64,000 nt of DNA, from NCBI GenBank assembly GCA_036634775.1, contig JAVWRQ010000006.1, positions 1,252-65,251 on the forward strand, in the 5' to 3' direction. The position numbers were made by a program, and so were the translations under genes. Position 1 is the first letter of the stretch, and each line of letters begins with the position of its first letter. Positions 31,345-38,490 of the stretch are shown here, piece after piece. The notes under the pieces are model-generated. The model searched no databases and was not told where the DNA came from. It saw only the letters and a program-made list of their open reading frames with translations. Origin of the DNA: Clostridium sp. GTDB lineage: Bacteria; Bacillota; Clostridia; Lachnospirales; Lachnospiraceae.

Positions 31345-32886
31345 CTATTCAAGTTCACCTACTACGGTCTCCACGGCAGTCAGGCACTCTCCCGAATGAA
31401 TAAAATCTTTAAGTACTTCCAGATAGGGATATAAATAGAAGTCCTCTTCCATGACAGGAATCAGTTTCTGCAGTTTTTCATACACCGCTGCCGTTCCGAT
31501 TCCTCTTTTTAATTCCGAATCGACGGTCGATGTTTTTCCCACAAATTGCTGAGCCTGATAAGCAGACATCATTTCCACCGCCAGAATGTATTCCAGTTTA
31601 CGAACAACTTCAATGGATTTTTTGCATGCATTGTACCCCATGGATACGTAATCTTCCTGTCCGGCACTGGTAGAGACACTATCGGCAGTGGACGGGGTCG
31701 CCAACATACGCAGTTCATTTAATAAGCCGGCTTGTGTATACTGGGGAATCATAAGACCGGAATTCAGACCCGGATTCTTCACCAGGAACCATGGATAACC
31801 GGATAGATTCTGATCTAAGAACCTAGCGTTTCTACGCTCCGACATTTTAGCCAGATTGACAGCGGCGATGCAGGCGGCATCCATCTCCATACCCACATAA
31901 GAGGCATCCGGATTGCCATTCGAGTAGATATCCGGGGCATCTCCGGTGCCATAAACCACCGGATTATCGGCACAGGAATTGATTTCACAGGATACTACAT
32001 CATAAGCATCGTGAAGCAGACGTTTTGCCGCACCATGGAGTTGGGGCACGCAGCGCAAAGAAAGTGCATCCTGTAAATGGGTTCCCTTCGCCGCTTCGAT
32101 GATCTCGGAACCGGATAGAATTCTATGCTGATTTTTTGCCGTAGCAATCAACTCTTTCTCCGGACGACAGGCTGTCACATGCTCATCATAAGCGCGAATC
32201 AGACCATTTAAAGCTTCCAAAGACATAGCTGCTGCAATATCAGCTGTTTTTGCCACACGATTTAAATCATAAATGGCGATGGCGGCCAGTGCCGTAGGAG
32301 AAGATGCGCCATTAATTAATGCCAGACCCTCTTTATAGCTTAACACGAATGGCTCCATACCGGCTCTTTTCAGTGCTTCTTTGCTGTCTAATAATTCCCC
32401 GCCATAGTAAGCTCTGCCTTCGCCCAAAAGCACCGATGCCACATGGGCTTCTGCACAGAGATAACCAACGGAACCTTCTTTAGGCACATAAGGAACCACG
32501 CCCCTATTTAAAAACTGCCTGTAGCATTCCAGAAGTTCTAATCTCACGCCACTGACCCCTCTGCCCAGACTCTGCAGAACCATCAGAATAATCGCTCTTA
32601 CTTCCTCTTCGCCAAATGGCTCTCCCACGGAGACAGCATGGGTCAGTATAATATTCTTTTGCAGCGTTTCTGCCTGCTCCCGGCCAATTGCCTGGGTCAC
32701 CAGTGCCCCAAATCCGGTCGTGGTACCGTAGACAGCCCGTTCATCCTTTACACACTGTTCTACTATTTTTGCGGATTTTTGAACCCGCTCTCTATAATCT
32801 TCGGAAAATTCCACTTCTGCGCGAAACCGCACAATGTCCATAAACTCTTCAATTGATATTTGTTTGCCTAATACGATTGTTTTCAT
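31345..32886 (-). CDS. Aromatic amino acid lyase family, MIO-less; probable ergothioneine/hercynine trimethylammonia-lyase (paralog A)
   Basis: YGTTTGFG, QDALSLRC.PQ.HG and QEDYVSMG are present. The HAL loop GSVGASGDLAPLAH is replaced by GSVGYLCAEAH. Confidence 0.75.
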   Translation of the reverse strand: MKTIVLGKQISIEEFMDIVRFRAEVEFSEDYRERVQKSAKIVEQCVKDERAVYGTTTGFGALVTQAIGREQAETLQKNIILTHAVSVGEPFGEEEVRAIILMVLQSLGRGVSGVRLELLECYRQFLNRGVVPYVPKEGSVGYLCAEAHVASVLLGEGRAYYGGELLDSKEALKRAGMEPFVLSYKEGLALINGASSPTALAAIAIYDLNRVAKTADIAAAMSLEALNGLIRAYDEHVTACRPEKELIATAKNQHRILSGSEIIEAAKGTHLQDALSLRCVPQLHGAAKRLLHDAYDVVSCEINSCADNPVVYGTGDAPDIYSNGNPDASYVGMEMDAACIAAVNLAKMSERRNARFLDQNLSGYPWFLVKNPGLNSGLMIPQYTQAGLLNELRMLATPSTADSVSTSAGQEDYVSMGYNACKKSIEVVRKLEYILAVEMMSAYQAQQFVGKTSTVDSELKRGIGTAAVYEKLQKLIPVMEEDFYLYPYLEVLKDFIHSGECLTAVETVVGELE

Positions 32887-32910
32887 ATGCGCCTCTTTTT
32901 AAGTACTTTA

Positions 32911-33174
32911 TTATTTGCAAAATTCGGATTTACGAAATAAAAAGCGAAGGAGAACCATCCATCCCCATGACAGCGATAAGGCCGGCATACACGCCAATAG
33001 GATTCCTTTCACCGGTGGAATAGGTGAAAAACAAATGGGTCCAAAAAACATAATAAACGTCACCACCAACATGAGTAAAAGAACAATTTTTTCTTTTTTA
33101 GTATTGGGTGGCGTTAAAAAAATCTTCACCAAATCCGGTTCTACGAGTTTCTTTACACTGTTTTTCATATTCAT
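32911..33174 (-). CDS. Small two-TM membrane protein (87 aa)
   Basis: Strong RBS AAGGAGG; two hydrophobic segments; sits co-oriented between the two lyases. Confidence 0.6.
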   Translation of the reverse strand: MNMKNSVKKLVEPDLVKIFLTPPNTKKEKIVLLLMLVVTFIMFFGPICFSPIPPVKGILLACMPALSLSWGWMVLLRFLFRKSEFCK

Positions 33175-33198
33175 CGTCCTCCTTCTTCTTTCTCATCT

Positions 33199-36699: not shown

Positions 36700-36705
36700 T
36701 CTTTC

Positions 36706-36734
36706 TTGACCAAATATTCTTATAGAGTTATACT
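36706..36734 (+). promoter_or_regulatory. Sigma-A promoter of the activator gene
   Basis: TTGACC-N17-TATACT. Confidence 0.6.
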
Positions 36735-36822
36735 ATAAATGATAGATTGGAATCTTAAAAGCTTAAAAATATAGTTTAACGGAATTGGGAGATTTATTTT
36801 CCTGATTGGGAGGTTGGATTTT

Positions 36823-38490
36823 ATGAAATTTTACGATATTTTATTTTTGTTGGATGCAGAACAGCATCTAAATCAGGTGGAATGGGGCAATTCAAAAACA
36901 GAAGCCACCTACCATCTGCTTTTTTCCAATTGGATTGCCGGCAGAGCAACCCTTTCTTCGGTTTTTCCGCTGACCGATGACGACTGGTCCGGAGAACTAT
37001 TCTGGGATGAAGATCATTTTTTATATGAGAAGAAAATGGCACCGAATGATTGCTACTACTTATTTTTAAAGAAACGGGACGACAAGGAATATCTTTTCAC
37101 CAAAGCCTTTGACCGGATTTTCGAAGGAATCCAAATCTATGACAAAAATGCCTGTGCCGTATTTTTTAATAAATCCAGCCGTGCCATTTCTCAAATCCCC
37201 GATGATGTATCAATTGAAGGCAGGCATCTATTGGATATGTACGATTTAGAGGAAGAAATCAGTACGACGCTCACCTGTCTTCACACCGGTTCCCCTGTTA
37301 TCAATCGAGTGGATCACTATAAATCCAACGATGGGATTGCCATCGCAACGGCTAACACCTCTTACCCGATTAAAAGGGGGAATGAATTAATCGGTGCAGT
37401 TGTATTTGAGCAGACCGGTGATATCGTAAAATCTTATATGCGAAAAATGGAAGAAATCGACCGTGCCTTAAAGCTCTTCGATGCCCATACGAAACAAATC
37501 CGTTTTTCCGGTTATACGTTTAACAACATTATTGGGCACGGTGAAAAACTGCAGCATGCTGTTTCTATTGCAAAAAAAATCGCCCCCCAGGATAGTTCTG
37601 TCCTATTAGTCGGTGAAACCGGTACCGGAAAGGAAATCTTTGCCCAGAGTATCCATAGAGAAAGCAACCGCAGCAATAAGAAGTTTGTAGCTCTTAACTG
37701 CGCTGCGATTCCCGACTCCCTGATTGAAAGTATCCTGTTTGGCACCCAAAAGGGCAGTTTTACCGGCAGTGAAAATAAACCCGGTTATTTTGAAGAAGCC
37801 GAAGGTGGTACTTTGTTTTTAGATGAGTTGAATTCCATGAGTCTCAATATGCAGTCCAAGATTCTGCGGGCAATCCAAGAAAATACCTTTCGGCGGGTCG
37901 GTGGACAAAAAGATATTCCCATGAATGTGCGAATTATCTCTTCCTGTAATGAAGATCCGTTCAAAGCGATTGGTGAAAACCAATTTCGAAAAGACCTTTT
38001 TTATCGTCTGTCGACGGTGATGATCGAACTACCTCCTCTTCGGGAGCACAAAGAAGATTTGAACGAACTCATTCGTTACCACCTGGATGCAACTTCCTTC
38101 CAATATGTCCATCCGTTCACCGGAATTGATCCGGAAGTCATGGCTATCTTCAACCGTTATGACTGGTCCGGCAATATCAGAGAACTGTTCCATGTACTGG
38201 ATTATGCACAGAATGTATCCGATGGCGATATCCTATGTCCCGAGCATCTGCCTTCTTATCTGACAAAAATGCTCCCCGCAAAAAAAGAAGAAACATCCCA
38301 CCAAAAGCAGGATGTTTCTATCGATTTTGTCAACGACGATCTGCAGAGTCTCATGGACGAATACGAACATGAGATCCTCATCAAAGCATTGGATCACTAT
38401 GGGTATAATATCTCCAAAACTGCAGATGCGCTGGGTATCCGGCGGCAAAGTCTCCAGTACCGGATTAAAAAATATGGGATTATGATTTAA
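36823..38490 (+). CDS. Sigma-54-dependent transcriptional activator (PAS + AAA+ + Fis HTH; RocR/PrdR-like)
   Basis: GETGTGKE, ALNCAAIP, GSFTGS loop, LFLDELNSM, FRKDLFYRL, NISKTADALGIRRQSLQYRIKKYG. Confidence 0.93.
   Translation: MKFYDILFLLDAEQHLNQVEWGNSKTEATYHLLFSNWIAGRATLSSVFPLTDDDWSGELFWDEDHFLYEKKMAPNDCYYLFLKKRDDKEYLFTKAFDRIFEGIQIYDKNACAVFFNKSSRAISQIPDDVSIEGRHLLDMYDLEEEISTTLTCLHTGSPVINRVDHYKSNDGIAIATANTSYPIKRGNELIGAVVFEQTGDIVKSYMRKMEEIDRALKLFDAHTKQIRFSGYTFNNIIGHGEKLQHAVSIAKKIAPQDSSVLLVGETGTGKEIFAQSIHRESNRSNKKFVALNCAAIPDSLIESILFGTQKGSFTGSENKPGYFEEAEGGTLFLDELNSMSLNMQSKILRAIQENTFRRVGGQKDIPMNVRIISSCNEDPFKAIGENQFRKDLFYRLSTVMIELPPLREHKEDLNELIRYHLDATSFQYVHPFTGIDPEVMAIFNRYDWSGNIRELFHVLDYAQNVSDGDILCPEHLPSYLTKMLPAKKEETSHQKQDVSIDFVNDDLQSLMDEYEHEILIKALDHYGYNISKTADALGIRRQSLQYRIKKYGIMI

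Follow-up and report, generated by a model that had tools for sequence, protein, structure and literature searches.

A sigma-54-type locus of a Clostridium species with two cofactor-less lyases of the histidine ammonia-lyase fold: a probable operon for the breakdown of hercynine

This analysis concerns a gene cluster at positions 31,345 to 38,490 of a 64,000-nucleotide stretch of Clostridium sp. DNA (assembly GCA_036634775.1, contig JAVWRQ010000006.1; the whole stretch is referred to as the window). The cluster encodes two lyases of the histidine ammonia-lyase (HAL) fold, A and B, in which the residues forming the 4-methylideneimidazole-5-one (MIO) cofactor of HAL are missing, together with a transporter of the BCCT family, a small membrane open reading frame (ORF) and a divergently oriented sigma-54 activator. 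We consider it probable that these genes form a catabolic operon under a sigma-54 switch which serves to degrade a histidine betaine with an N-alpha-trimethyl group and no sulfur; hercynine is the most likely candidate. Lyases with this type of reaction were already known: ergothionase and, since 2025, the Shewanella lyases for hercynine and N-pi-methyl hercynine. The clade to which both lyases belong, called GSVGY here after its loop motif, appears to be new and to lie closest to HAL. What we observed is the gene content of the locus, the motifs and fold of the lyases, the structure of their clade and its associations in genomes. The features of the locus are the following.

31345-32886, minus strand: lyase A, ORF of 513 aa; PF00221, 525 bits; signature Asn195/Pro329; GSVGY clade
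32911-33174, minus strand: small membrane ORF, 87 aa; no Pfam match; also a gene call on the public contig
33199-34740, minus strand: lyase B, ORF of 513 aa; PF00221, 539 bits; signature Ser195/Ala329; GSVGY clade
34758-36401, minus strand: BCCT transporter, 547 aa from the ATG at 36401; PF02028, 370 bits
36469-36484, minus strand: sigma-54 promoter TGGCACGGTTCTTGCT, exact -24/-12 consensus
36663-36699, no strand assigned: candidate upstream activator sites, two 17-nt TGC(A/C)-N9-TGCA elements with 20 nt spacing
36814-38490, plus strand: sigma-54 activator, 558 aa; Sigma54_activat, AAA lid and HTH_8; divergent from the operon

Two lyases of the HAL fold without MIO

The original prediction was built on three motifs of the lyase ORFs, all of which are present: YGTTTGFG at residue 53 of lyase A and YGVTTGFG at 59 of lyase B, IILTH at 79 of A and IILSH at 85 of B, and GSVGYL at 138 and 144, respectively. 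It also held that the MIO-forming ASGD had been lost in favour of a single Tyr. An alignment with HAL and ergothionase confirms this, ASGD being replaced by one Tyr with a deletion of three residues in lyases A and B and in 196 of 196 relatives, and a motif search found no Ala-Ser-Gly over the full length of either lyase. Both proteins belong to the Lyase_aromatic family PF00221 by the scores given above. An AlphaFold model of lyase B, predicted from an alignment of database proteins (pLDDT 89.6), superimposes on P. putida HAL (1b8f) with a TM-score of 0.92 and on ergothionase (6s7j) with 0.88. HAL is their closest relative in sequence as well as in fold; HALs come first in searches of the PDB sequences with the two lyases (1e-96 and 3e-92) while 6s7j ranks far lower (5e-55 and 9e-48). 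Identity is 34-35% to the P. putida enzyme and ~39% on average to bacterial HALs, in a small comparison set of 3-8 sequences.

Since the Ala-Ser-Gly triad and with it MIO are absent, these lyases cannot be ordinary histidine ammonia-lyases. Three more residues of the P. putida enzyme (whose numbering is used throughout) are exchanged: in 196 of 196 members of the clade Tyr280 has become Leu and His330 Asp, and Phe329 is replaced by Pro, Ala or Cys (Ser in one sequence). Asn195 of HAL is Ser in lyase B. By contrast, the residues of HAL that bind the imidazole and the carboxylate are the same in the window lyases, Tyr53, His83, Gln277, Arg283, Asn313 and Glu414 being invariant or nearly so in the clade, and the HAL pocket around C2 of the imidazole (Met382, Tyr/Val386) has been kept too. 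Fixed replacements next to intact catalytic and binding residues argue for purifying selection on a different reaction rather than decay, and the conserved imidazole ligands His83 and Glu414 point to a substrate that carries an imidazole. Both lyases are cytoplasmic, as neither has an N-terminal leader and the alignment with HAL begins at residue ~5; this location fits a pathway in which the substrate has to be imported.

It had been predicted that such genes are prone to be annotated as hutH, and this risk is real. Lyase B scores 526.5 against the PRK09367 'histidine ammonia-lyase' subfamily model of NCBIfam and thereby passes its cutoff of 524 (lyase A fails with 513.9), and a homologue at JGI is named histidine ammonia-lyase. 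The hutH equivalog TIGR01225, with a cutoff of 539.15 bits, is reached by neither (492.8 bits for A, 507.2 for B). NCBI names for these lyases are generic. We found no ergothionase or hercynine-lyase model in NCBIfam, where a true ergothionase orthologue matches HAL-type models alone, below cutoff.

Relatives with known substrates and a probable connection to the Hut pathway

In the ergothionase of Treponema denticola, Lys384 binds the thiolate of ergothioneine and is essential, while the same site is occupied by Asn in the Shewanella hercynine lyase and by Gln in the N-pi-methyl-hercynine lyase (bioRxiv 10.1101/2025.08.13.670108; 10.64898/2026.04.22.720169). The T. denticola sequence was rebuilt from HMMER alignment output, and the numbering of Lys384 was checked in two ways, by its distance of 28 residues from the Glu ligand, which is constant, and against the supplementary alignment of the preprint. 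Here lyase A (Y383), lyase B (Y389) and 196 of 196 relatives have a Tyr, as does HAL. Lys at this site goes together with a small residue at 382 in all of ~83 ergothionase-like sequences, and Tyr goes together with Met in all 196 GSVGY sequences. A Tyr at this site together with Met382 leaves neither room nor charge for a thiolate, so that the substrate of the GSVGY enzymes is expected to be without sulfur at C2.

The amine site, in turn, resembles that of the known trimethylamine-eliminating lyases, in line with the original prediction. Both clades have Leu280 and an acidic residue at 330 around this site, the latter being Asp in 196 of 196 GSVGY sequences, Glu or Asp in 82 of 83 ergothionase-like ones and His in HAL. 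Lyases A and B thus carry what may be called the trimethylammonia-lyase signature (no MIO, Leu280, acidic 330, intact beta-proton base), a class signature which is defined by this comparison and not drawn from a published definition. The T. denticola enzyme (6s7j) further shares with them the HAL fold, the catalytic Tyr, the His/Glu and Gln/Arg/Asn ligands and an adjoining BCCT gene. The loop is different, however, with a one-residue deletion and E/A/Q-G/A-D in ergothionase, compared to the three-residue deletion with Tyr in GSVGY.

A phylogenetic check against ergothionases had been proposed. It bears out a kinship in MIO-less features but not orthology: in a neighbour-joining tree (distance-based and unrooted, sequences classified by alignment column) the GSVGY clade is monophyletic in 30 of 30 bootstraps and stands nearer to HAL. 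Mean identities are 39% between GSVGY and HAL, 29% between GSVGY and ergothionase-like sequences and 32% between the latter and HAL; both window lyases are 26-31% identical to T. denticola ergothionase. True ergothionase orthologues (44-56% identity) coexist with GSVGY lyases in C. symbiosum and B. producta and have an operon of their own. In C. symbiosum ATCC 14940 an orthologue of lyase B, 80% identical, is likewise grouped with an activator, a BCCT gene and the small ORF, and a few kb away lies a second lyase that matches 6s7j at 3.7e-133 (phmmer; 44% identity). In B. producta DSM 2950 a LysR gene and an operon of ergothionase-like lyase, BCCT and OCD genes lie at a separate chromosomal site, and C. 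symbiosum has the same type of operon. Ergothionase activity is also present in SO_3057 of S. oneidensis. The orthologues in C. symbiosum and B. producta are obvious candidates for the enzymes studied in gut ergothioneine work on the same organisms. The C. symbiosum ergothionase-like protein, used as a single query, gave two loci, and an alignment served as query thereafter. The operon with LysR and an OCD/mu-crystallin gene was seen in C. symbiosum (L064, 6975-12154), in B. producta (L067) and in L066; its OCD-family member is 74-85% identical between species, and we found no role in ergothioneine metabolism for the OCD gene.

The Shewanella enzymes provide the second comparison. Swoo_3913 of Shewanella woodyi is a histidine betaine trimethylammonia-lyase which converts hercynine to urocanate and trimethylamine (bioRxiv 10.1101/2025.08.13.670108), and SO_3299 is a MIO-less lyase specific for N-pi-methyl hercynine (bioRxiv 10.64898/2026.04.22.720169). 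Like the window lyases they have no MIO and a neutral residue at the Lys384 site, they catalyse the type of reaction predicted here, and sigma-54 regulators are found in some of their gene neighbourhoods too. In contrast, they are periplasmic, with a signal peptide, and coupled to respiratory flavocytochrome urocanate reductases, whereas lyases A and B are cytoplasmic and coupled to an importer. Swoo_3913 is Mg2+-dependent, contains insertions and is ~26% identical to HAL (~39% for the window lyases), and its loop, SSVGLSD in the OCR text, has the ergothionase-like length instead of that of GSVGY. Judged by periplasmic location, insertions and loop length, the Shewanella hercynine lyase represents a different lineage again.

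A profile-guided scan of species-representative genomes (one genome per species) gave at least 584 GSVGY loci. Each of 78 newly fetched loci contains a GSVGY lyase, with 88 such genes in total, and the 120 best database matches likewise have the motif. The loci listed are almost all from Bacillota. They include gut taxa (C. symbiosum, Blautia, Flintibacter, Lawsonibacter, Pseudoflavonifractor, Oscillibacter, Acidaminococcus), oral Peptoanaerobacter and free-living Clostridium, Sporomusa, Geosporobacter and aerobic bacilli. A BCCT gene is the nearly universal partner. In Siminovitchia terrae, S. fordii, Niallia and Priestia abyssalis the BCCT-lyase pair adjoins hutU and hutI; Sporomusa has the lyase with an SSF-type transporter, hutU, hutI and a gene just above the hutH cutoff, and one more locus (L049) is arranged similarly. 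The hutU products are genuine by score, with 988-999 bits in Siminovitchia, Priestia and Niallia and 439 in Sporomusa for a cutoff of 375, and stay well under the curated cutoffs for thiourocanate and S-methyl-thiourocanate hydratase; the hutI products reach 477-507 bits (cutoff 298). The adjacency of bona fide hutU and hutI points to urocanate as the product and hercynine as the substrate. Since the same Priestia abyssalis locus also holds a true hutH (731 bits), the MIO-less lyase next to hutU, hutI and a real hutH would most simply be an additional way into the Hut pathway, specific for the betaine.

Lyase-B-type genes occur beside an ergothionase gene, inside clusters with a xanthine dehydrogenase (XDH)-type enzyme, in at least 15 loci; ergothionase-like genes are usually found with a three-subunit enzyme of this type. 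According to Feng et al., as cited in bioRxiv 10.1101/2025.01.17.632430, ergothioneine catabolism in the gut includes a reductive cleavage of the C-S bond by an enzyme of the xanthine oxidase family. The embedding of lyase B beside ergothionase argues against redundancy of the two enzymes, whose pathways may plausibly converge on urocanate. Two tandem GSVGY lyases of an Oscillospiraceae metagenome-assembled genome (MAG; L041, 794-4155) have Asp in place of the imidazole ligand His83, which hints at yet another substrate.

From these observations we infer the substrate and products as follows. The divergent AAA+ activator would sense an effector and open the -24/-12 promoter, and the BCCT transporter would import hercynine. 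Lyase B, and probably also lyase A with this or a closely related substrate, would bind the imidazole through His83 and Glu414 and hold the carboxylate by Gln277, Arg283 and Asn313 as in HAL. The catalytic Tyr53 is then predicted to remove the beta-proton, with direct expulsion of trimethylamine in a Hofmann-type elimination without MIO; the cofactor should be dispensable because the trimethylammonium group leaves readily as it is and, lacking a lone pair, could not form an adduct with MIO. The leaving-group pocket may have been rebuilt from the former MIO site by the loop Tyr, Leu280, Asp330 and Pro/Ala329. The expected products are urocanate and trimethylamine, and urocanate would be passed to the ordinary Hut pathway, or reduced, by genes outside the window.

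Promoter, activator and transporter

The predicted sigma-54 promoter opposite the activator is indeed there: TGGCACGGTTCTTGCT is an exact TGGCAC-N5-TTGCT upstream of the BCCT and lyase genes and the sole exact match to TGGCAC-N5-TTGCW in the window, with a chance expectation of 0.01. It precedes the BCCT ATG at 36401 by ~68 nt, and the same promoter is kept upstream of the BCCT gene in at least eight related loci (L001-L003, L007, L016, L018, L037 and L062). We take ATG 36401 as the BCCT start because of its strong ribosome-binding site GGAAAGGAG, the position of the promoter and the public gene call of 547 aa. The ORF itself extends to a TTG at 36485 (34758-36485), which overlaps the promoter and is rejected as the start. 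The pair of TGC(A/C)-N9-TGCA elements, a direct repeat ~180-215 nt upstream of the -24/-12 promoter, is a candidate for the binding sites of the activator, and TGCA-N9-TGCA-like elements are found upstream of the sigma-54 promoter in L002, L003, L007, L016 and L019 as well.

On the minus strand the promoter is followed by the BCCT gene, lyase B, the 87-aa ORF and lyase A. Gaps of 17-24 nt between these genes and the lack of a convincing terminator suggest that the four are co-transcribed. A terminator scan found none in the intergenic gaps. It gave seven weak matches where chance alone would give 5.4; six of them fall within the lyase and BCCT genes and one within the 87-aa ORF, ~50 nt before its stop. 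A DNA sequencing run confirmed the locus at ~97-99% identity. Downstream of lyase A follows a PRT-like gene (30586-31278, minus strand) with weak OPRT-type matches alone, a C-terminal CPFC and a sigma-70-like promoter at 31311-31283. It was rejected as a member of the operon because it has this promoter of its own and is not conserved with the lyases.

The activator consists of a ~235-aa N-terminal sensor region, an AAA+ domain and a C-terminal Fis-type helix-turn-helix (Pfam: Sigma54_activat with 213 bits, AAA_lid_14, HTH_8). Its GAFTGA-type loop (GSFTGS), the helix-turn-helix and the exact -24/-12 promoter nearby identify it as a sigma-54 enhancer-binding protein. The N-terminus, to which a PAS domain was initially assigned, gives no significant match to PAS_7 (E=0.14) or GAF (E=0.13). 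PrdR is the best NCBIfam match, below cutoff (369 < 795). Most lyase-B loci have a homologue (58-74% identity) placed divergently in the same way. The regulatory logic sketched above is read from this arrangement.

The gene content likewise bears out the prediction that the lyases are coupled to a sigma-54 switch and to an importer of the betaine type. The BCCT protein remains below every NCBIfam specificity cutoff, that is, for glycine betaine, carnitine and choline, and its Trp-box reads WTMYDW, with an Asp. Lyase-linked BCCTs have WT(L/M)(Y/F)DW, and this Asp variant is common only to the BCCTs of GSVGY lyases and those beside ergothionase orthologues, the other BCCTs in these loci with a matched Trp-box having WWT(V/I)YYW. 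The shared Asp argues for a chemically related cargo of the two groups and is a possible marker for histidine-betaine transporters; taken with the near-universal BCCT partner, it points to a quaternary amine as the substrate of the lyases. The window BCCT presumably imports the histidine betaine substrate. BLAST matched the small ORF to 71 ORFs, which amount to 54 distinct homologues; those mapped lie directly downstream of lyase-B-type genes. They are 85-87 aa long, with two hydrophobic segments and conserved KIFLTPP and SWGW.VLLR..FRK motifs. A domain scan assigned the small ORF to no Pfam family, and it may be accessory to the transporter.

Differences between the paralogues, rival explanations and genomic setting

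Lyases A and B are 57% identical and differ at the amine site, which has Asn195 and Pro329 in A, and Ser195 and mostly Ala329 in B. Lyase B is the widespread core type, accompanied by BCCT, activator and small ORF. Lyase A belongs to a Blautia-centred subclade of GSVGY; the order BCCT-B-A is found also in Blautia MAGs (L001-L007), and in B. producta, B. hominis and B. celeris its orthologues lie among MttB, AcnX and Ldh_2 genes, joined by XDH genes in related Blautia and Lachnospiraceae MAGs. The XDH-type enzyme near lyase A is 32-38% identical to the ergothionase-linked one. MttB neighbours give independent support for a quaternary-amine substrate, but together with AcnX, XDH and the distinct signature they make the substrate of lyase A less certain. 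Blautia 'betaine islands' of this kind were seen in B. producta DSM 2950 (L015, 2600-19000) and in L008, L009, L006, L011, L012 and L059. They contain a lyase-A-type gene, two MttB-family methyltransferases, two AcnX large subunits and a swivel subunit, Ldh_2, an SSF or BCCT transporter, a third GSVGY lyase and sometimes a three-subunit XDH-type molybdoenzyme.

Several points weigh against the hercynine operon as we propose it. Adjacency to hutU and hutI is a minority trait (~12 of ~140 loci), and hutU, hutI and urdA, which would account for the local fate of the product, are absent from the 64 kb window, as is XDH; the right flank contains housekeeping genes (Spo0A, SpoIVB, RecN, NAD kinase, DXS, ExoVII). 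Two paralogues in one operon suggest two substrates, and the MttB, AcnX, Ldh_2 and XDH-type neighbours of lyase A relatives are not explained by hercynine. The specificity rules were drawn from another clade, that of T. denticola ergothionase, and their transfer to GSVGY is uncertain. In three transcriptomic runs that carry the same coded species label as the DNA runs with the best matches to the locus, no read mapped to 30500-36600. Finally, the searchable literature holds no assayed enzyme of the GSVGY clade, an earlier characterisation in subscription-only literature being possible; a search on hercynine or histidine-betaine lyases, hypaphorine lyases and S-methyl-ergothioneine enzymes brought up nothing beyond the Shewanella preprints.

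The differences between the paralogues leave some room for the possibility that one or both lyases, especially A, act on another betaine or a partly methylated substrate and release trimethylamine or dimethylamine; for lyase A this is the main rival explanation, although we regard it as rather unlikely. Candidates are N-pi- and N-tau-methyl hercynine, S-methyl-ergothioneine, ergothioneine sulfonate, and N-alpha,N-alpha-dimethylhistidine produced by an MttB-type demethylase. The fixed Asn/Pro versus Ser/Ala exchange would fit such a divergence at 57% identity, as would the Blautia orthologues of lyase A among MttB, AcnX, Ldh_2 and XDH genes, whose transporter is of the SSF type or a BCCT without the Asp, and the precedent of a Shewanella MIO-less lyase specific for N-pi-methyl hercynine (bioRxiv 10.64898/2026.04.22.720169). 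In the window, however, lyase A shares promoter and transporter with lyase B, its imidazole ligands and C2-pocket residues are identical to those of B, and the characterised MIO-less lyases are reported to need the trimethylammonium group (bioRxiv 10.64898/2026.04.22.720169). A more speculative proposal, to which we give little weight, is that GSVGY is a third cofactor-less lineage of the HAL fold, perhaps derived separately from within HAL, in which lyase A would have a different, hitherto unrecognised substrate (N-alpha,N-alpha-dimethylhistidine after an MttB-type demethylase, or a modified hercynine). Acetogens of the Blautia type might then harvest methyl groups of histidine betaines first and release the amine afterwards into an AcnX/Ldh_2/XDH route instead of the Hut pathway.

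The original prediction had named ergothioneine next to hercynine, and here the evidence turns against it. That both lyases are a second type of ergothionase, converting ergothioneine to thiourocanate and trimethylamine, might be suspected from the missing MIO, the BCCT partner, the Leu280 and acidic 330 shared with ergothionases, the frequent presence of lyase-B-type genes in ergothioneine clusters with XDH-type candidate thiourocanate desulfhydrases, and the position of lyase-A-type genes directly after an XDH-type enzyme in some Blautia. We nevertheless judge it improbable. The invariant Tyr at the Lys384 site with Met382 kept would not accommodate a thiolate, the lyases are as distant from ergothionase as their identity and separate clade indicate, and organisms reported to degrade ergothioneine possess a true orthologue in its own operon. 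In addition, the neighbouring hydratases are hutU and not thiourocanate hydratase, and the XDH linked to lyase A is only distantly similar to the ergothionase-linked one. Still harder to credit is that the lyases are hutH paralogues, whether ordinary histidine ammonia-lyases or degenerate ones, or that they are pseudo-enzymes without activity. Their best PDB and family matches are HALs and lyase B passes the PRK09367 cutoff, but the MIO triad is gone, Tyr280 and Phe329 are replaced, and this pattern is kept strictly in 196 sequences along with the catalytic and binding residues. Moreover the partner is a BCCT and not an amino-acid permease, and a true hutH coexists with the lyase in the Priestia abyssalis hut locus.

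Gut bacterial trimethylamine is the precursor of trimethylamine N-oxide and urocanate that of imidazole propionate, both linked to cardiometabolic disease. If the lyases do cleave hercynine, they would provide a second entrance to the Hut pathway and a source of trimethylamine independent of cutC and cntA, the known anaerobic ergothioneine cluster would gain a partner enzyme, and the clade would be a natural experiment on the transition from a cofactor-dependent to a cofactor-free lyase. That this locus is a gut source of trimethylamine is plausible. The share of host trimethylamine from this route is probably small because the dietary intake of these betaines is in the range of milligrams per day, in agreement with the small dietary supply described (PMC13405746). 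Surveys of histidine-betaine degradation have searched for ergothionase homologues alone and judged the trait rare (PMC13405746); as a separate clade, GSVGY is missed by such searches and by current annotation with its generic or hutH-like names.

As to the setting of the locus, the left flank of the window (1-29450) resembles a conjugative element: genes for a VirB4-like ATPase (18654-21428) and a VirD4/TraG-type coupling protein (26643-28643) are accompanied by several ORFs of 600-1300 aa that have no Pfam match; the lyase operon begins ~2 kb beyond it. On the other side, next to the activator, lies an ORF (38498-40642, minus strand) that resembles a type III glutamine synthetase; the ORFs after it resemble class II fructose-bisphosphate aldolase and threonine synthase, all judged by eye from the translations. 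With ordinary chromosomal genes on the right, the operon appears to sit at the junction between a mobile element and the chromosome. The identity of 80-83% that lyase B shows across Lachnospiraceae and Oscillospiraceae makes horizontal spread plausible.

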